Shown in pieces: positions 6,118 through 19,916 of a stretch of DNA of 23,637 nucleotides. The first letter of the stretch is position 1; each line of letters starts with the position of its first letter. The position numbers were made by a program, and so were the translations under genes. This DNA is from a virus. The stretch is taken from the UHGV virus genome UHGV-1381150, one strand, 5' to 3'. Under the pieces are notes generated by a model. That model was not told the DNA's origin. It made no database searches and worked only from the letters and a program-made list of their open reading frames with translations.

Positions 6118-6811
6118 CCGGGACTGCAGTGTCTCCCGGACATCATCCGGTAGATGGCTGTAGGGGTTGCCATCCACCTTATGGCTGCCGCTGTAAATCA
6201 GCGTGATTTCCACGCCCTGTTTCTCCAGCGCAGCACCGTAATTACTGTGAGCCATCATGACGCCGATGGAGCCTGTCCGGGCGGTCTGCGTGACCAGACG
6301 CCGGGAGGCGGCACTGGCAAGCAGCTGACCTGCGCTGCAGTTCATGTCATTGGCCAGCGCCCATACCGGCTTTATGTCACGCACACGGGCGATGATGTCA
6401 GCGCAGTCAAATGCCCCTGCCACCATCCCGCCTGGCGTATCCATATCGAGCAGAATGCCATCCACCATCGGGTCGCTGGCAGCCTGTTGCAGACGGGCGA
6501 TAATGCCGTTGTAACCGGTCATTCCCGAATACGGCTGCAGCGCCCGCGTCCGGCTGACCAGCGTGCCGGACACCGCCAGCACGGCGATGCCGTTCATGAC
6601 CTGATAACTGCGGGCCTGTCGTGGTCCGTCATCATCACCGGATAACGCCAGCGCCGCGGGTGCCTCTCCGGCAGTCAGGCTGTCGCCGGATACTGCATCC
6701 GTCAGGCGGCTGATCCCAAGCTGGCCTGCAAGCGCACAAAAGAAAACCCGCGCATAGGCGGGTTCAAGCATCAGCGGCTCATTAAAGGCCATGCTGGCAA
6801 TATGCGGGAGA

Positions 6812-11058: not shown

Positions 11059-11260
11059 TGTTCATTCCACGGCCAAAAACAGAGAAAGGAAACGACAAAG
11101 GCCCAAAAGTTCGTTTTCAGCACCTGTCGTTTCCTTTCTTTTCAGGGGGTATTTTAAATAAAAACATTAAGTTACGACGAAGAAGAACGGAAACGCCTTA
11201 AACCGGAAAATTTTCATAAATAGCGAAAACCCGCGAGGTCGCCGCCCCGTAACCTGTCGG
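11059..11260 (-). other. cos site: cosB between Nu1 and cosN; cosN 12-nt cohesive-end sequence GGGCGGCGACCT on the minus strand at 11236-11247
   Basis: Reverse complement of 11141-11247 reads GGGGCGGCGACCTCGCGGGTTTTCGCTATTTATGAAAATTTTCCGGTTTAAGGCG..., matching the lambda left end as recalled; sequence is continuous across cosN. Confidence 0.85.
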
Positions 11261-11282
11261 ATCGCCGGAAAGGACCCGCAAA

Positions 11283-11299
11283 ATGATAATAATTATCAT
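11283..11299. promoter_or_regulatory. Perfect 17-bp palindrome ATGATAATAATTATCAT containing the 7-1-7 Fur-box consensus TGATAAT-n-ATTATCA
   Basis: Read directly from the sequence; 15/15 match to the idealised Fur box; lies about 150 bp upstream of the plus-strand ORF at 11447. Confidence 0.5.
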
Positions 11300-11446
11300 C
11301 TGCATGTCACAACGTGCATCTACGCCATCAAACCACGTCAAATAATCAATTATGACGCAGGTATCATATTAATTGATCTGCATCAACTTAACGTAAAAAC
11401 AACTTCAGACAATACAAATCAGCGACACTGAATACGGGACAACCTC

Positions 11447-11680
11447 ATGTCAACGAAGAACAGAACCCGCAGAACAACAACCCGCAACATCCGCTTTCCT
11501 AACCAAATGATTGAACAAATTAACATCGCTCTTGATCAAAAAGGGTCCGGGAATTTCTCAGCCTGGGTCATTGAAGCCTGCCGCCGGAGACTGTGCTCAG
11601 AAAAAAGAGTTTCTCCTGAAGCAAACAAAGAAAAGAGTGACATTACTGAATTGCTCAGAAAACAGATCAGACCAGATTGA
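11447..11680 (+). CDS. Small basic protein (77 aa), possible ribbon-helix-helix DNA-binding fold
   Basis: ORF on the strand opposite to the late genes next to cos (the bor position in lambda); RNIRFPNQMIEQINIAL...FSAWVIEACRRRL resembles a strand-helix-helix pattern; family assignment uncertain. Confidence 0.45.
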   Translation: MSTKNRTRRTTTRNIRFPNQMIEQINIALDQKGSGNFSAWVIEACRRRLCSEKRVSPEANKEKSDITELLRKQIRPD

Positions 11681-11736
11681 AGCAATTTAGATAATCGTGC
11701 AGACTACGCCCCTCATATCACATGGAAGGTACTACA

Positions 11737-12147
11737 ATGGCTCAGGTTGCCATTTTTAAACAAATATTCGATAAAGTGCGAAATAATTTAAACTATCACT
11801 GGTTTTATTCTGAACTAAAACGTCACAATGTCTCACATTACATTTACTATTTAGCCACAGAGAATATTCATCTTGTTCTTGAAAACGATAATACGGTTTT
11901 AATAAAAGGACAGGGTAAGGTTGTAAATGTAAGATTTTCAAAAAATAAATGCCTTATAGAAGCCACATTAAAAGGATTCAAATCAGGAGAGTTATCATTT
12001 TACGAATACAGGAAAAATCTTGCTACAGCAGGGGTTTTCAGATGGATTACAAATATCCACGAAAACAAAAGGTATTACTATACCTTTGATAATTCATTAC
12101 TCTTTACTGAGAACATTCAGAACACTACACAAATATTTCCGCACTAA
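11737..12147 (+). CDS. Hypothetical moron protein (136 aa from [11 protein letters not shown]), possibly DUF1398/YbcV-like
   Basis: GGAAGG Shine-Dalgarno 8 nt upstream of the ATG at 11737; AT-rich codon usage; family call is from memory only. Confidence 0.55.
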
Positions 12148-12637
12148 ATCATAACGTCCGGTTTCTTCCGCGCCAGAACCGGACTCGCTGGCATGATGAA
12201 ATATGTGTACCCGGTAACCCCGGTGTGCATCGTTTTTGATTATTCCCGCACACTCGCGCAGAAGGAGTTCCCCGTCGGGCTGCGGTCTCTGTTAATACGG
12301 GAATACGGCGACGATACAGCGCATGATGTGTCAGGCTTGAATACCTTTATCCTTTAAAAGGGATATCAGTTAAGTTATCCCGTGTAGGGTATAAGCCATT
12401 ATCAAAGCCACTCTGTAGGAAGTGCTTTTGTAATGGCAATAAAAAGCCCCGCGAATGCGAGGCTAAATCCTGGTATTTGTAATGACTGGCTCTTATCTCA
12501 ACGCAGCCCCTTACCGCGCGCAAAATGCTCAATATCAAGCATCAGCAATGAGATGTTTAATCTGGATTCACTCCAGAAGTGAGCACCACCCTGTCTACAG
12601 AGCCAGATGTGAAGGATGATGAGTAAAATTATCGCTA

Positions 12638-13963: not shown

Positions 13964-15016
13964 TTATTTCCCCACCAGTTCACTTACCTCTTTCACCGTC
14001 TGATTAAATCGCTCTGACTCAAGTTCAACACCTAACGCCCGACGCCCCAGCGCCATTGCCGCTTTTATTGTGGAACCGGATCCCATAAAGAAATCAGCAA
14101 CCAGATCGCCTTGTCGACTACTGGCACTGATTATTTGCCGGAGCATATCCGCAGGCTTCTCACACGGATGTTTACCCGGGTAGAACTGAACGGGTTTATG
14201 CGTCCAGACGTCGGTATAAGGCACGGAAACTGATACGGAGAAATAGCGCCGGAGAGTTTTAAACTCATCCAGCAATTCAGAATATTTGCGATTCAGTGAA
14301 TCATAAGATGCCACCAGCTGGTGGTGTGGTTGTTCCAGTTGTTGTTCCTGAAATTTCTCTGCCGCTATACGGGAAAACAGTGCCTGCAACTTCCGGTAGT
14401 CAGCCTCATTCGGCAACTGCCACTGACTGGCACCAAACCAGTGGGAAACCATATTTTTCTTACCTGTGGCTTCGGCAATTTGTTTTGCCGTTATACCCAG
14501 TTCGGCACGAGCATCCCTGAAATACGATATCAGCGGTGCCATTATGTGCTGTTTGAGTTCCCTTTCTTTTGCCGCATAGCCGTCACTTTTGCCGCGATAT
14601 GGCCCCTGGTAATGTTCAGCAAACAGAACGCGCTCTGTGGCAGGAAAATATGCGCGCAGACTTTCTTTATTACACCCATTCCAACGTCCGGACGGCTTCG
14701 CCCAGATGATATGGTTAAGCACGTTGAAACGTTCACGCATCATGATCTCAATATCAGATGCCAGGCGATGCCCACAGAACAGGTAAAGGCTTCCGGCAGG
14801 TTTCAACACCCGCCAGAACTGGGCCAGACAGTGGTCCAGCCACTTAAGGTAATCTTCGTCCCCTTTCCACTGATTGTCCCAACCGTTGGGTTTCACCTTG
14901 AAGTAAGGCGGATCGGTAACAATCAGGTCAATGGAATCATCAGGCAGGGACTGAATAAAATGCAGGCAATCAGCGTTGATTAAATCAACACTGTTTATTT
15001 TTACAGTATTTTTCAT
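13964..15016 (-). CDS. DNA methyltransferase, beta-class amino-MTase (N6-adenine or N4-cytosine)
   Basis: 350-aa ORF with catalytic motif IV DPPY (IVTDPPYF) near the N-terminus and an AdoMet-binding FxGxG-like motif (DFFMGSGST) near the C-terminus, i.e. the IV-before-I order of beta-class enzymes. Confidence 0.85.
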   Translation of the reverse strand: MKNTVKINSVDLINADCLHFIQSLPDDSIDLIVTDPPYFKVKPNGWDNQWKGDEDYLKWLDHCLAQFWRVLKPAGSLYLFCGHRLASDIEIMMRERFNVLNHIIWAKPSGRWNGCNKESLRAYFPATERVLFAEHYQGPYRGKSDGYAAKERELKQHIMAPLISYFRDARAELGITAKQIAEATGKKNMVSHWFGASQWQLPNEADYRKLQALFSRIAAEKFQEQQLEQPHHQLVASYDSLNRKYSELLDEFKTLRRYFSVSVSVPYTDVWTHKPVQFYPGKHPCEKPADMLRQIISASSRQGDLVADFFMGSGSTIKAAMALGRRALGVELESERFNQTVKEVSELVGK

Positions 15017-15482: not shown

Positions 15483-15506
15483 AAAAAAACCCGCTCGACG
15501 GCGGGT
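15483..15506 (-). terminator. Rho-independent terminator for the minus strand (hairpin CCCGCT-CGAC-GGCGGG followed by a 7-T run on the minus strand)
   Basis: Plus strand reads AAAAAAACCCGCTCGACGGCGGGT; GC-rich 5-6 bp stem with a U-tract on the minus-strand side; only TTT on the plus-strand side. Confidence 0.55.
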
Positions 15507-15553
15507 TTAAGTTGTGTGGCGAAGTAACCACTCTTAACACAATACAATACTTT

Positions 15554-15582
15554 TTGCGTACGCGTTATAGTTTTCTTACAAT
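15554..15582 (+). promoter_or_regulatory. Candidate sigma70 promoter of the DUF262/HEPN operon (-35 TTGCGT, 17-bp spacer, -10 TACAAT)
   Basis: Hexamers read directly; followed by AAAGGA RBS (15595-15600) and ATG at 15609; prediction only. Confidence 0.4.
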
Positions 15583-15608
15583 CAACTTTCAATTAAAGGA
15601 ACGAAAAC

Positions 15609-16769
15609 ATGACTACACTCAAAGAACTCAAAGAAGAGCTTGCTCAGATACAAGATGAACACGCTAAGAACAGAAAAAAGGCTGAAATTGCAGCTTTAAC
15701 CGCTTCCGCTGACAATGAAATCAGACTCGCTCAGAGAAACATTGGATACAATGTACGTGAGTGGACCGTTGAAGTCATTATTCAAAAGTATGGTGATAAT
15801 ATTGAAAATGACAAAAACGAGCTTTTTATTCCAGATTATCAACGTGATTACAAGTGGGATACAAAAACAGCCTCTCGCTTTATAGAAAGTATTCTATTAG
15901 ACTTTCCAATACCTTACCTTTACATTGCTGATGTATTTAATGAAGACCCTGAATTAGATGGTAGGGTAGAAATCATTGATGGTTCACAACGGATACGCTC
16001 TATTTATTATTTTTGGAACGATCAATTTGAGTTAAAGGATTTGAAAGAGCTTAAAAGTTTAGAAGGTTTCAAATTTTCAGATCTTTTAGCTAGCCGCCAA
16101 AGAAGATTTTTAAGAGCTTCACTAAGATTTATTGAGTTGAAAGGTGATGTTGAGGAACAACATAGAAGAGATTTATTTGAAAGGATCAACTCAGGTGTTA
16201 AAAGATTAGAAGCGATGGAAGTGAGGCATGGCTCAGATGCTGCTACCTCAATGTTCTATAAAGATGTTGTGACCCCATGCTCAACAAACTCACTTTTTTC
16301 CCAACTAGCTCCATTATCAGACCGGAAACGGTCGAATGGCGATCATCGTGAGTTAGTTTTGAGATTTTTTGCATATTTAAATGATTTAGAAAACTATAAG
16401 GGATTTGTCCGTCCCTTTATTGATAATTATTTAAATGAACAAGCAGCAGCTGTGACTACTCAACAAGATGTTGATAATTTTAAACATGATTTTGAAATGA
16501 TGCTTGCTTTTGTTGCTACCCATTTCCCTATTGGCTTTAAAAAGACCGCAACAAGTAAAACCACCCCACGAGCCAGATACGAAGCCATTGCCGTGGGAAC
16601 TGCACTTGCATTAAAAACTAACCCACAACTCCAGAGTCCAGCCGTACCTGTAGGTGAATGGCTATTTGAAGAGGAATTTGAAACACTTGTTACTGCTGAT
16701 AGTGCAAACAATACCAGCCAGCTAAAAAACAGAATCTTTTACGTTAAAAATAAGTTGTTAGGGATTTAA
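15609..16769 (+). CDS. DUF262/ParB-like (GmrS-type) NTPase-domain protein with an uncharacterised C-terminal half
   Basis: 386 aa; motifs IPDYQRDYKW (aa 74-83) and IIDGSQR (aa 122-128) match the hallmark motifs of DUF262 domains; N-terminal coiled-coil-like segment; AT-rich gene. Confidence 0.8.
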   Translation: MTTLKELKEELAQIQDEHAKNRKKAEIAALTASADNEIRLAQRNIGYNVREWTVEVIIQKYGDNIENDKNELFIPDYQRDYKWDTKTASRFIESILLDFPIPYLYIADVFNEDPELDGRVEIIDGSQRIRSIYYFWNDQFELKDLKELKSLEGFKFSDLLASRQRRFLRASLRFIELKGDVEEQHRRDLFERINSGVKRLEAMEVRHGSDAATSMFYKDVVTPCSTNSLFSQLAPLSDRKRSNGDHRELVLRFFAYLNDLENYKGFVRPFIDNYLNEQAAAVTTQQDVDNFKHDFEMMLAFVATHFPIGFKKTATSKTTPRARYEAIAVGTALALKTNPQLQSPAVPVGEWLFEEEFETLVTADSANNTSQLKNRIFYVKNKLLGI

Positions 16770-16771
16770 AA

Positions 16772-17461
16772 ATGAGTCTAATTGATTTACGAGATGAATA
16801 TGAAGAAAGAGCAAGAGACATTATGGAACTGCTTTCTCTTGCATCATCTATAGAGATTCATACTCAGCAGTTAGATCCGCAAGCGCATCAAGATGAAATA
16901 GAATCTAATATCCTAAGGGTAAATATTTTAAAATCATCCGTTCATATGATGCTATATAATCAAGTTGAAAATACTGCCAGAGGTTGCATCGAGTCAATTT
17001 ATGATCATTTACAAGATAATGAGGTGAATTACGCATCACTCAGGGAGAAGCTTCAAGTAAATATATTACATAGAATTGTTTCAGATAATGAAACAGGGCA
17101 ATCCCTTTATAAAAAGATAGGCACTGACATTTCCAAAAGAATAATTTCAGCCTCATTGAATATTCGTAAAGAATTCAATGGTAATGTTTGCAAGCCTGTA
17201 TTACACAAAATAACGCAGGCTTACGGAATAACTATCGCAAACTCACCTGAATGTAGAAATGGTATTGACTTAGACTTGCTTAAGGATATCAGAAACGAAC
17301 TCGCGCATGGAAGTACTAGCTTCTCTAAAAAGGGGCAAATTGACCCCTTAGAAGAAGTTAAGTCTAGAGCAGAGAGAGTTGATCTATATCTTCGTTTATT
17401 AATAAACTCAACTGAAGATTATATTATCTCTAACGGATATTTATCCCCTCAACATGCCTAA
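16772..17461 (+). CDS. HEPN-like protein (Rx4H motif RNELAH), putative effector partner of the DUF262 protein
   Basis: 229 aa; starts 2 nt after the stop of the upstream gene; predicted all-helical; conserved-looking R-x4-H motif at aa 174-179 (nt 17291-17308). Confidence 0.6.
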   Translation: MSLIDLRDEYEERARDIMELLSLASSIEIHTQQLDPQAHQDEIESNILRVNILKSSVHMMLYNQVENTARGCIESIYDHLQDNEVNYASLREKLQVNILHRIVSDNETGQSLYKKIGTDISKRIISASLNIRKEFNGNVCKPVLHKITQAYGITIANSPECRNGIDLDLLKDIRNELAHGSTSFSKKGQIDPLEEVKSRAERVDLYLRLLINSTEDYIISNGYLSPQHA

Positions 17462-18470
17462 CAAACGTTCTCCCTATTACTTGGCCAATTATAGGGGGAA
17501 CAGCATTACCAATCATCGTTCCTAACTTTTGGAATGAAAAAGGCGTATTTTTTCCAATAAATTTATAATCCATAGGAAAAGATTGTAAAATAGCAGCTTC
17601 ACGCAAAGTTATTGCTCTATTTTGCTCAGGATGTCCGAATCGCCCATTACCATATCCATAACATTGGGTAGTTATTGTAGGACTAGTATCGTCCCAAACC
17701 ATCCGTCCATAAACACTTTTATAGGTAGCACCTGAATGCTTTTTATGGCAATCCGCTCTAATTTCTTCAGGCCAATCATCCCACGTACCACCTGGTAAAG
17801 AGTGCAAGATTCGTTTAAGGTTAATATCCCTTAATTTAGGCGAACGATGCAATGGATCACTTTCGAGTTTCTCCCCTGCACCTATTTTTGGCAACTGACC
17901 AATAGCATCCTTTACTGTAACTTTACGGCTTACTTTTTTTTGATCAAGGCTGATTGGCCCCAATATGGACCCAATTAGAATTAATCTACGTCTATTTTGA
18001 GGCAAGCCATACTCGGAACATTTTACAACGTCGTACCACAGATGATACCCAAGAGTCTTTAATACACTAACAAACTCTTCAAAAACCTTATGATTTCTAA
18101 GTTGAGGAACATTTTCCATAGTCACAAGCTCTGGCATGACATCACTTACAATCCTCTGAAACTCAGATAAAAGACGCCACTTTGTATCATCTTTTCTGCT
18201 ATTTGGATTACGATACTTGGAAAACGGTTGGCAAGGGGCACAGCCTGCAAGTAATCTAATATTTCCTTCCTTGAACATAGCAGACACATCGCTGGATTGC
18301 AGTTCAGTAACTGACTGGTTAATGAACTTCGTTAAGGGATTATTGCTCTCAATAGCGAAACGGCAGGACTCATCAATATCAATGCCATGAGAAACTTCAA
18401 TCCCGGCTTTTTTTAGCCCAAAAGTTAAGCCCCCTGCGCCACAAAAAATGTCTACTGCTTGAATGTTCAC
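17430..18470 (-). CDS. DNA (cytosine-5)-methyltransferase, Dcm-like (GTG start with GGAG Shine-Dalgarno)
   Basis: 346 aa with canonical m5C-MTase motifs in order: I FCGAGG, IV GCAPCQPFS, VI ENV, VIII QNRRR, a variable target-recognition region, and C-terminal GNAV. Confidence 0.9.
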   Translation of the reverse strand: MNIQAVDIFCGAGGLTFGLKKAGIEVSHGIDIDESCRFAIESNNPLTKFINQSVTELQSSDVSAMFKEGNIRLLAGCAPCQPFSKYRNPNSRKDDTKWRLLSEFQRIVSDVMPELVTMENVPQLRNHKVFEEFVSVLKTLGYHLWYDVVKCSEYGLPQNRRRLILIGSILGPISLDQKKVSRKVTVKDAIGQLPKIGAGEKLESDPLHRSPKLRDINLKRILHSLPGGTWDDWPEEIRADCHKKHSGATYKSVYGRMVWDDTSPTITTQCYGYGNGRFGHPEQNRAITLREAAILQSFPMDYKFIGKNTPFSFQKLGTMIGNAVPPIIGQVIGRTFVRHVEGINIR

Positions 18471-18489
18471 AAGATTCTCCGTTACTTTA

Positions 18490-18535
18490 CCCTGGTATTA
18501 TATACACATAAAAGTTGGGAAAGTAGAATGATTTT
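18490..18535 (-). promoter_or_regulatory. Candidate late promoter pR' with presumed Q-utilisation site (-10 TATAAT at 18502..18497 on the minus strand)
   Basis: The 79-bp Q-to-MTase intergenic region contains a perfect TATAAT on the minus strand about 30 nt upstream of the MTase start; the -35 is weak (TACTTT), as is common for activator-dependent promoters. Confidence 0.35.
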
Positions 18536-18549
18536 ACATAGCACTTAAC

Positions 18550-18903
18550 TCATTGTATTAAATAAAAAAATGACAAGCATCCATCAATAAACCCCATAGC
18601 TGTTTGCATATCTTTTCGAACTGTTCCGTCTGAACATTTCCGCTTCTTTGCAATTGTACGGAGCGAAATGCCAACAACAAAGTGAGCAATTATCAGCTCA
18701 TACTCTGCCGGCTTGTATTTACGCAACCTAGCGACACAACCGTCTATTATGATGCCCTCATCATCATCGCACTGAATCCGGGACTTTCTGCCATGAGGTA
18801 AAAGCCGCTTGAAGCCAGCAGCTACCGGTTGCCAGTCCACACCACTGTTTTCTGCAGCAGCCCATGCCCCCCAGCGGTCCAAAACTTCATACATATCACG
18901 CAT
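18550..18903 (-). CDS. Q: Late-gene antiterminator Q (QuuD/Q21-like family)
   Basis: MRDMYEVLDRWGAWAAAENSG...QCDDDEGIIIDGCVARL resembles E. coli DLP12 QuuD as recalled; located directly upstream of the late operon. Confidence 0.8.
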   Translation of the reverse strand: MRDMYEVLDRWGAWAAAENSGVDWQPVAAGFKRLLPHGRKSRIQCDDDEGIIIDGCVARLRKYKPAEYELIIAHFVVGISLRTIAKKRKCSDGTVRKDMQTAMGFIDGCLSFFYLIQ

Positions 18904-18920
18904 CAACTTTCTCCACAAAA

Positions 18921-19916
18921 TCAGGCCAGCACGCCAATTGCCAGCGCACGATCGATAAAACGAAATATCAGCTCCAGCTGGGAGCCATACATCTCTTCAA
19001 ATGCCACGGTATCTGCATGCAGCTCGTCGTGATGCTTTCTGCACAAAGGCAACACAAAGAGGTCATGCGCTTTTGTACCCATTCCACCCTGACCGTGACC
19101 TATCAGGTGGTGGGGATCATCAGCAGGCTTTCCACAACATGCACACGGCTGTGTCTTAACCCAGCGCGTGTACTTTTCATTAACCCAGCGGCGACGTTTT
19201 GGGCGTAACATAAAAGACTCCGGCGACTCCGGATCCACTTTCAGCGCCAGCACCTTTTTCGCCTTATCCTGGATGATGCTGGTAGCAGGAACCGAAGGCA
19301 CAAGGTCACTTTCCCGGGTGACAGACGGCACAACAGGCTTCGGTAATCTCAGTGCCTTACGGGCTGCACTTTCCGGTAAGGCATCCGCCAGGTCATTACG
19401 AATCAGCCACCAGCACAGTTCCGGCATTGTCACAACGTGACTGTCATCAAAACCGAGATCCCGACGCACAACAGACAACACCCAGCGGGCACAGTTATCC
19501 GTTGCCATTGATTCCAGCCGTTCCGTGAACTGATCGCGCAGCTGGTTATCGCAGTGCCAGCACAGACGGATTGCACCCGGAGCGTGTCGCATTGTGGTCA
19601 TGTTCTCGCTGTGCCAGTCGGAATGAGGCCACTGGCAGCCTTTTTCACGAAGTAACCAGCTTTCAAGACATTCCACGCCACCAGCACGACGGATCACTGC
19701 CTCATTGCGGAACACGGCCCAAACGGCAGGATCATCCGCCAGCGGTTGTGACGCCGCGGGAACGGCACCACTGGCGAAAGATGAATAATGCTCCGGCTCA
19801 GGCTCCAGCAGGACACGCCCCTGCATAAACAGGGGCATCAGCTCTGAACCGGGCCTGAACAATACGATCCCCATACGCGGGGCAATTTCAGGGGTCAGTA
19901 GTGCTCTCACGGTCAC
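18921..19916 (-). CDS. DUF968-like protein with C-terminal HNH-like Cys/His cluster
   Basis: 331-aa ORF with CACCGKPADDPHHLIGHGQGGMGTKAHDLFVLPLCRKHHDELH near the C-terminus; typical position upstream of Q; start ambiguous (GTG at 19916 or ATG at 19874). Confidence 0.7.
   Translation of the reverse strand: MTVRALLTPEIAPRMGIVLFRPGSELMPLFMQGRVLLEPEPEHYSSFASGAVPAASQPLADDPAVWAVFRNEAVIRRAGGVECLESWLLREKGCQWPHSDWHSENMTTMRHAPGAIRLCWHCDNQLRDQFTERLESMATDNCARWVLSVVRRDLGFDDSHVVTMPELCWWLIRNDLADALPESAARKALRLPKPVVPSVTRESDLVPSVPATSIIQDKAKKVLALKVDPESPESFMLRPKRRRWVNEKYTRWVKTQPCACCGKPADDPHHLIGHGQGGMGTKAHDLFVLPLCRKHHDELHADTVAFEEMYGSQLELIFRFIDRALAIGVLA

Follow-up and report, generated by a model that had tools for sequence, protein, structure and literature searches.

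Anantharaman, Makarova, Burroughs, Koonin & Aravind (2013, Biol Direct 8:15) listed in their Table 1 an operon that combines a MAE_28990-type HEPN gene, a ParB gene and a DNA methylase gene, and predicted it to be linked to restriction-modification (R-M). In that study, R-M-linked HEPN domains were proposed to act as second-line RNases, the ParB protein was annotated as a nuclease and a multi-pronged model was put forward. Here we describe a three-gene cassette in the UHGV virus genome UHGV-1381150, a stretch of 23,637 nt that was analysed as a whole (hereafter the window; coordinates count from its first letter). The cassette consists of gene A (DUF262 protein, 15609-16769, plus strand), gene B (HEPN protein, 16772-17461, plus strand) and gene M (C5 cytosine DNA methyltransferase, 17430-18470, minus strand), and is best classed as an E. 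coli prophage representative of the ParB/HEPN/methylase neighbourhood that was predicted in 2013 or, equivalently, as a PD-T4-2-type DUF262 plus HEPN defence with an obligately linked C5 methylase. Each feature of the 2013 class is present, namely a match to PF18737, the Rx4-6H motif, a ParB-superfamily gene in the operon and an adjacent DNA methylase. The three components are the same, B is a full-length member of PF18737 (a family built from that very study) with a conserved Rx4-6H, and two Microcystis aeruginosa loci (L021 and L070) show the arrangement A-B-<M. The 2013 entry differs in being a one-line comparative-genomics annotation with no name, experiment or mechanism, whereas the present copy lies in an E. 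coli lambdoid prophage. In the searchable literature (subscription-only papers lie outside this scope), the term MAE_28990 was found in Anantharaman et al. 2013 only, and no experimental work on a DUF262/HEPN/C5-methylase triad was found. A 2025 review of restriction-modification brings up DUF262 only in connection with GmrSD and SspE, and HEPN is absent from it.

Among systems with experimental data, PD-T4-2 (Vassallo et al. 2022; E. coli ECOR65) is a 'DUF262, HEPN' pair which gave protection from T4 in K-12 as well as in its native strain. It spans 1540 bp with two coding sequences and without a methylase, the authors' HHpred analysis placed PD-T4-2B in the RiboL-PSP/MAE_28990 HEPN neighbourhood, and a 2026 preprint still describes it merely as a HEPN-containing system. 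Compared through PADLOC profiles rather than by direct sequence alignment, our locus resembles PD-T4-2 in being a two-gene DUF262-then-HEPN operon in E. coli, in the match of A to the PD-T4-2_A model and in the shared HEPN neighbourhood. It differs in the length of B (229 aa, as against approximately 165 aa in PD-T4-2), in having a methylase and in that A is closer to NsnA. B gave no match to the PD-T4-2_B model at E<=0.1 and two of its 72 relatives matched it at E ~0.005, and the system is therefore left unnamed. The first-pass annotation of this DNA, made from the letters alone, could not match the A-B pair to a named system; this holds for the PD-T4-2_B, NsnB and NsnC models but not for PD-T4-2_A and NsnA, both of which match. 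It had also proposed that the module was undescribed, a claim overtaken by the 2013 Table 1 operon, by the validation of PD-T4-2 and PD-lambda-5 in E. coli and by the existence of RefSeq family names.

PD-lambda-5 (Vassallo et al. 2022; E. coli ECOR7) is a prophage-borne 'ParB/HEPN, methyltransferase' pair, which its authors regarded as a highly compacted combination of R-M and abortive infection (Abi) with broad protection. Their HHpred table assigns it a ParBc domain (PF02195) fused to a weak HEPN region in one protein of approximately 500 aa, and a Dam-type N6-adenine methylase (PF02086). A prophage-borne ParB-fold domain, a HEPN-like region and a DNA methyltransferase are thus common to both systems, but the resemblance is analogous and not homologous: in our cassette the proteins are separate, the ParB-fold is of the DUF262 kind and the methylase is a C5 cytosine enzyme. 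The PADLOC models of PD-lambda-5 were not matched by A or B and were not among the best 25 of the 62 PADLOC matches of M, and identity with PD-lambda-5 was rejected on its different domains and different methylase class. Menshen (NsnABC) shares with our locus an NsnA-like A protein with ParB-DUF262 plus helical C-terminal (ParBDB-type) architecture, but its other genes code for an ABC ATPase (NsnB) and an inPIN effector (NsnC) in place of the HEPN protein and methylase found here. Neither B nor M matched NsnB or NsnC (Pfam and PADLOC profiles; for M, the best 25 of 62 PADLOC matches), and identity with Menshen was likewise rejected. In GmrSD, BrxU and SspE, DUF262 serves as NTPase and sensor, and a separate DUF1524 HNH domain cuts. 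A has in common with these proteins an N-terminal DUF262 NTPase domain with the motifs QRxxxW, DGxQR and FxxxN; they differ in having DUF1524 HNH, which A lacks, in being single-chain and modification-dependent or phosphorothioate-sensing, and in having no paired C5 methylase. GmrSD identity was rejected for the missing DUF1524. Among the matches listed, no PADLOC system had its complete gene set represented in the cassette.

The central observation is that A, B and M make up a three-gene, horizontally mobile cassette present in many bacterial phyla and in phages. Eighty loci from species-representative genomes were fetched via alignment of B homologues (24-37% identical to the window protein by best tblastn segment, 20-37% in alignments). 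They come from cyanobacteria (including Microcystis aeruginosa, the source of the name MAE_28990), several proteobacterial classes, Verrucomicrobiota, Actinomycetota (Collinsella, Micromonospora and Nonomuraea), Bacteroidota, Planctomycetota, Leptospira and Chloroflexota. Every one of the 80 genome loci and of the 64 viral loci has an A homologue immediately before B, the two genes being separated or overlapping by a few nt, so that the order A-then-B is strict. An orthologue of M (E 1e-105 to 1e-135) adjoins A-B in 67 of the 80 genome loci, at gaps of -89 to +129 nt and in three gene orders (40 A-B-<M, 14 A-B-M> and 13 M>-A-B). The viral set comprised 64 IMG/VR contigs, 62 of which extend far enough to judge M, and in every one of these 62 M is adjacent (family-profile E 1e-156 to 1e-171, with one weaker match at 2e-46). 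Among complete E. coli genomes, 107 of 5426 (~2%) have the cassette and all 107 carry A, B and M at full length, in two alleles (34 genomes at >=99% identity, i.e., at least 99%, and 73 at ~87%), with ST131 and O111:H8 strains among the carriers. Across loci, the pairwise identities of A, B and M are correlated with one another (rho A-B 0.88, A-M 0.63, B-M 0.54). The same triad is found beside an integrase in a Vibrio owensii island, next to McrBC in a Pseudomonas island and, in Klebsiella prophages with two different backbones, in the same slot between Q and the lysis genes that it occupies in the window. The two-gene unit drawn by the first-pass annotation consequently left out one third of the system, as the C5 methyltransferase is linked to A-B across phyla and phages.

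The obligatory, order-independent linkage of one methylase family to A-B, their co-inheritance and the known roles of DUF262 and HEPN domains together point to an R-M-like logic. By analogy with these systems and from the sequence itself, the locus is probably an R-M-type defence cassette, in which M would mark self DNA, A would be an NTPase and DNA sensor and B an RNase-type effector. A defence role as such, which had been suggested from the letters alone, is the most reasonable reading. The companion suggestion of a 'split GmrSD-like' system gives way to the R-M-like one on account of the linked C5 methyltransferase, since GmrSD is a type IV, modification-dependent system. A type IV-like locus would have A-B attack foreign modified DNA, with M unrelated to self-protection. 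The DUF262 domains of GmrSD and BrxU do recognise modified cytosines and PD-T4-2 targets T-even phages, but a modification-dependent nuclease in obligate company with a cytosine methylase would harm its own carrier unless it excluded that particular mark, and the conservation of the link between M and A-B speaks for the reverse polarity. We therefore regard the type IV-like alternative as scarcely credible.

Gene A (15609-16769, plus strand, 386 aa) codes for a DUF262 protein of ParB/Srx fold and NTPase type, with an N-terminal helix, a helical C-terminal domain (residues ~210-384) and NsnA-like architecture; RefSeq/PGAP names it 'DUF262 domain-containing protein'. It matches Pfam GmrSD_N/PF03235 at 5.8e-26 (92 bits, cut-off 33), and neither A nor B contains a DUF1524/HNH domain detectable by Pfam and PADLOC profile searches, in agreement with the first-pass call of DUF262 without its HNH half. 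Among PADLOC models NsnA (5.9e-45) is a better match than PD-T4-2_A (4.6e-27), and each of the two is matched by 53 of 53 A-family members. The two motifs picked out at first sight, IPDYQRDYKW and IIDGSQR, do lie at residues 74-83 and 122-128. The DUF262 motifs QRxxxW (78-83), DGxQR (124-128) and FxxxN (190-194) are at least 95% conserved across phyla, and so are residues E248, R252, E325, G330, D364 and R375 of the C-terminal helical domain. The AlphaFold2 (AF2) model of A is confident (predicted local distance difference test score, pLDDT, 85.4), and its best Foldseek match in the PDB is BrxU 7p9k of the GmrSD family, with SspE and the CTPase clamps ParB, Noc and KorB among the other best matches; with the A sequence as query, no PDB chain was matched. 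These structural matches agree with a ParB-fold NTPase joined to a helical DNA-binding-type domain, as described for NsnA.

The 2013 annotation of a 'ParB nuclease' raises a different view of A, as a ParB-like restriction endonuclease cutting unmethylated DNA, with B as a back-up suicide RNase in the manner of PrrC with EcoprrI, so that the cassette would combine type II-like R-M with Abi. This would fit the multi-pronged model of the same paper, and PD-lambda-5 has been termed R-M plus Abi. In addition, the PADLOC 'REase_II' model (Type II restriction enzyme, DUF262-containing) is weakly matched by 53 of 53 A-family members, at 7e-4 by A itself and at best at 1.2e-17 in the family. Against this, DUF262 is NTPase or sensor in GmrSD, BrxU and SspE, cutting falls there to the separate DUF1524 HNH that A is missing, and the nearest structural matches of A are ParB-type CTPase clamps, not nucleases. 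We judge a restriction endonuclease role for A to be quite unlikely.

Gene B begins 2 nt after the end of A, and is probably translationally coupled to it. It codes for a stand-alone HEPN protein of the MAE_28990 family (16772-17461, plus strand, 229 aa), named 'MAE_28990/MAE_18760 family HEPN-like nuclease' by RefSeq/PGAP, and matches Pfam HEPN_MAE_28990/PF18737 at 2.9e-17 (64 bits, cut-off 26.8), with residues 6-223 on profile positions 5-211 of 211, and RiboL-PSP HEPN at 1.4e-7. The R-x4-H HEPN catalytic motif RNELAH (R174...H179; 17291-17308, plus strand) is located exactly where the first reading had placed it and is 100% conserved; RNxLAHG is invariant in 17 close and 72 distant relatives of B. 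In the 72 distant relatives (20-37% identity, mean column identity 29%) the invariant residues are Y62, E66, G137, R174, N175, L177, A178, H179, G180, S183 and F184. The AF2 model of B is mediocre (pLDDT 70.6) and fold searches with it gave generic helical bundles only, so the HEPN assignment, which agrees with the first-pass call, rests on the sequence profiles and the invariant R-x4-H. A profile of B compared with PDB chains returned nothing meaningful. The B family comprises 682 clusters (50% identity, E<=1e-10). In a few E. coli genomes (P0011, P0012 and P0016) a C-terminally truncated B of 192 aa was seen, with a frameshift after residue ~186 and loss of the last predicted helix; such alleles may represent natural inactivation of a toxic arm.

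HEPN proteins are frequent toxins of toxin-antitoxin pairs and R-M-like cassettes act as selfish addiction modules, and the truncated B alleles could be seen in the same light. One may thus conceive of a toxin-antitoxin-like addiction module that stabilises the prophage, with B as HEPN toxin, A and/or M as neutralising partners and no primary anti-phage role. But the triad is found in defence contexts (the McrBC neighbour and the prophage moron hotspot with HicAB, BsuBI/PstI R-M and reverse transcriptase), and the closest relatives with data are anti-phage systems, which makes a pure addiction module highly improbable.

Gene M (17430-18470, minus strand, 346 aa, GTG start) is convergent with B and overlaps its 3' end by 32 nt. 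Its product matches Pfam DNA_methylase PF00145 (2.7e-54), PADLOC MTase_II (1.2e-88) and TIGR00675 (1.8e-34), and has the complete catalytic set FCGAGG, PCQ, ENV, QNRRR and GNAVP (motifs I, IV, VI, VIII and X). The presence of an adjacent methyltransferase with complete catalytic motifs is a feature shared with type II R-M. M is the most conserved of the three proteins, with a median identity to the window protein of 50%, as compared to 40% for A and 25% for B. Across phyla, 33 positions of its target-recognition region (residues ~185-268) are at least 90% identical, which in C5 methylases argues for one shared sequence specificity. Its PDB relatives are DNMT1, M.HaeIII and uncharacterised enzymes, and the match is mainly to the catalytic core. 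A published ST131 methylome concerns a strain without this methylase, and 5-methylcytosine was outside its assay.

Several observations weigh against an R-M-type defence cassette and have to be set beside the evidence of linkage. No recognisable DNA endonuclease (PD-(D/E)xK, HNH, GIY-YIG, PLD or half-pipe) was found in the cassette by the Pfam and PADLOC searches, only DUF262 and HEPN, so that a classical 'restriction' step is putative. Among the best 150 B-family representatives there are no A-B fusions, all being stand-alone proteins of ~200-265 aa (the shorter ones are fragments), so that fusions lend no evidence to an A-B complex. The target sequence of M could not be inferred from its PDB relatives or from the ST131 methylome paper, and the promoter assignments given below are based on weak consensus matches. 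PD-T4-2 protects without a methylase. Furthermore, 13 of the 80 genome loci have no adjacent M orthologue; four of them run into a contig end and a fifth (L052) has a divergent C5 methylase, but the remaining eight, all cyanobacterial (L004, L009, L015, L019, L034, L044, L047 and L053), carry A-B with all invariant residues, no adjacent methylase and flanks that by sequence look like housekeeping genes. Another locus (L012) keeps an intact A-B with only a methylase remnant (75 aa, 6569-6796), whereas its close relatives L018 and L023 have the full methylase. Intact A-B without adjacent M suggests that the pair can be tolerated when no M is linked to it, at least where the place of M may be taken by other methylases. 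Cyanobacteria have several conserved solitary methylases, and the methylase-less loci could be explained by unlinked methylases of the same specificity.

The protection by PD-T4-2 without a methylase, the eight cyanobacterial loci and the decayed M of L012 also speak for two independent morons, that is, a PD-T4-2-like DUF262 plus HEPN Abi pair blind to methylation and, beside it, an orphan or anti-restriction phage cytosine methylase that shields phage DNA from host R-M. Orphan methylases are common in phages, and this prophage has a second one, of the N6/N4 type (13964-15016). Such an arrangement does not sit well with M adjacency in three gene orders, in many phyla and in all the informative viral contigs, nor with the all-or-none cassette of the 107 E. 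coli genomes and the co-varying protein identities. Moreover, the neighbouring methylases all belong to one orthologous family in which the target-recognition region is conserved, something that chance neighbours would not maintain. Two unconnected insertions are therefore unlikely in our assessment, and the R-M-type cassette is the reading that we carry forward.

For the R-M-type cassette a working scheme can be proposed. M would methylate one fixed sequence motif in the DNA of host and prophage and thereby protect self DNA. A, with its DUF262 ParB-fold NTPase and helical DNA-binding-type C-terminus, would read the DNA and its methylation status, serving as an NTP-driven switch or sensor for unmarked or otherwise foreign DNA. 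B, co-translated with A, would be the effector, most likely a metal-independent endoribonuclease whose cleavage of RNA would halt translation and lead to abortive infection or growth arrest; DNA nicking or cleavage by the ParB-like domain may accompany its action. A HEPN tRNase that can be switched on by DNA is known from DARNA. More specifically, the cassette might carry out methylation-gated abortive infection, in which the C5 methylase marks self and the other arm is free of DNase, with the ParB-fold NTPase clamp loading on unmarked DNA and licensing the HEPN RNase; we put this narrower version forward tentatively, as a possibility.

The arrangement of the locus in the prophage suggests how such a cassette may be controlled. 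The first-pass annotation had pointed out promoter-like hexamers belonging to A-B. These hexamers, TTGCGT (15554-15559) and TACAAT (15577-15582) with a spacing of 17 nt, are present, but they agree with the sigma-70 consensus at 8 of 12 positions, under the scan threshold, and a consensus promoter scan of the region gave no more sites than shuffled sequence. They lie within a conserved upstream block (15550-15583, plus strand), which contains both hexamers and overlapping palindromes and is a candidate promoter plus operator. This block, TTTTGCGTACGCGTTA....TTTCTTACAATC, is 100% conserved when E. coli and Klebsiella cassettes with an overall identity of ~73% are compared, and it is invariant in four enterobacterial cassettes with ~73-87% overall identity. 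This conservation makes a functional promoter or operator plausible and is stronger support than the hexamers themselves. An AAGGA ribosome-binding site (AAAGGA in the first-pass annotation) is located 8 nt upstream of the ATG of A. The overlapping palindromes, GCGTACGC (15556-15563) and ACGCGT (15560-15565), fall between the -35-like and -10-like hexamers, and are 100% conserved in the E. coli and Klebsiella cassettes and in a further locus (L112) with a 57% identical B. Both are missing from the Vibrio, Pseudomonas and cyanobacterial relatives, and they may act as an operator specific to this clade or as a control site that responds to methylation. GCGTACGC was also considered as a family-wide element or methylase site and rejected, being confined to the enterobacterial clade.

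On the other side of the cassette, the Q-M intergenic region (18471-18549, minus strand) holds a conserved TATAAT (18502 to 18497) and a GGAG ribosome-binding site (18480 to 18477) followed by the GTG of M, and the block TGTATATAATA...ACGGAGAATCTTGTG is conserved between E. coli and Klebsiella. Judging from these motifs, the region is a candidate methylase promoter and possibly also the Q-dependent late promoter (pR'), an identity that we infer. M lies on the late-operon strand and A-B on the opposite one. In a lysogen, M would be transcribed from the promoter just downstream of Q, either its own or pR'. Upon induction, Q-modified transcription would run through M and, antisense, across B and A to the terminator, so that the methylase would go up and A-B would be damped while phage DNA is replicated.

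The window is a lambdoid prophage, as seen from terminase Nu1, gpA, Rz, a holin, an N6/N4 methylase, a DUF968 protein, a KilA-N protein and Q (profile search and PGAP annotation). Rfam and tRNA scans of the window were empty. The cassette is situated between the Q antiterminator gene (18550-18918, GC 0.45, relatively low) and a strong minus-strand terminator, and gene identification thus bears out the earlier placement of the operon as a moron in the Q-to-lysis slot. The coordinates of the two plus-strand open reading frames (ORFs; 386 and 229 aa, 2 nt apart) also stand, as does their orientation opposite to the flanking phage genes: all family-assigned or gene-like ORFs of at least 90 aa within ~3 kb on either side of A-B are on the minus strand. 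A, B and M form a low-GC island (34-41% GC at 15501-18500, as compared to 45-58% in the windows on either side), a sign of foreign origin which counts in favour of the R-M-type cassette. The intrinsic terminator (15487-15508, minus strand, i.e., the late-operon strand) has by scan an 8-bp stem with 5 GC pairs and a T-run and forms the left edge of the variable moron slot. It is conserved across other lambdoid phages, its counterpart in phage Ayreon being annotated 'terminator', and homology to other lambdoid phages ends at ~15540-15575. In phage Ayreon, unrelated small ORFs occupy the same slot. Between the E. coli prophage and Klebsiella prophages (L086 and L088), homology of ~73% is unbroken from the terminator (~15484) via A, B and M into Q (to ~18904), suggesting that the antiterminator gene may travel with the cassette as one mosaic module.

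A number of further features were noted in and around these prophages. The second methyltransferase gene (13964-15016, minus strand; PF01555, 9.6e-42) lies between the terminator and the holin gene, outside the cassette, and its position is kept in phage Ayreon and other lambdoid phages. Upstream of Q, on the minus strand, 18921-19916 codes for a DUF968 protein whose C-terminus is HNHc-like (1.6e-80) and 19918-20715 for a KilA-N domain protein. Another AT-rich stretch (11200-12500, GC 0.36-0.44) between Nu1 and Rz is a second moron-like insertion. It contains two ORFs on the plus strand, antisense to the phage genes, of which 11447-11680 (77 aa) has no family assignment and 11722-12147 (141 aa) matches DUF1398 (3.3e-43). 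The Klebsiella prophages with the cassette carry further defence-type cargo nearby (L086 and L089, 11742-13158; L087, 11583-13070; L086, 5007-5638). This cargo consists of a restriction enzyme of the BsuBI/PstI type together with an N6 methylase, a reverse transcriptase (RVT_1) and, between the cassette and the holin gene, a HicAB pair. The copy of this prophage in strain AR437 has undergone partial degradation and contains several pseudogenes; it adjoins a tRNA-Thr gene and proA.

The existence of the cassette will not surprise a specialist; the possible insight is in the coupling of DNA methylation status to a HEPN effector. If A-B should instead be a two-gene Abi system beside an orphan methylase, the locus would be one more member of a validated class. 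If the R-M-type model is true, it would be a compact and very widespread immunity module with R-M-style epigenetic self-marking, apparently without a canonical DNase and built on a ParB-type NTPase and a HEPN effector, found in cyanobacteria, proteobacteria, actinobacteria, Bacteroidota, planctomycetes, spirochaetes and phages. The gene neighbourhood predicted in 2013 would thereby gain the experimental example that it lacks, and the module would help explain the function of PD-T4-2 and PD-lambda-5. With ~2% of complete E. coli genomes carrying it, ST131 and O111:H8 strains among them, the model is directly testable, and it bears on phage therapy and on the transformability of clinical strains. 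Should the methylation-gated version be true, the family would embody a widespread mode of immunity that couples DNA methylation status to an RNA-targeting effector.

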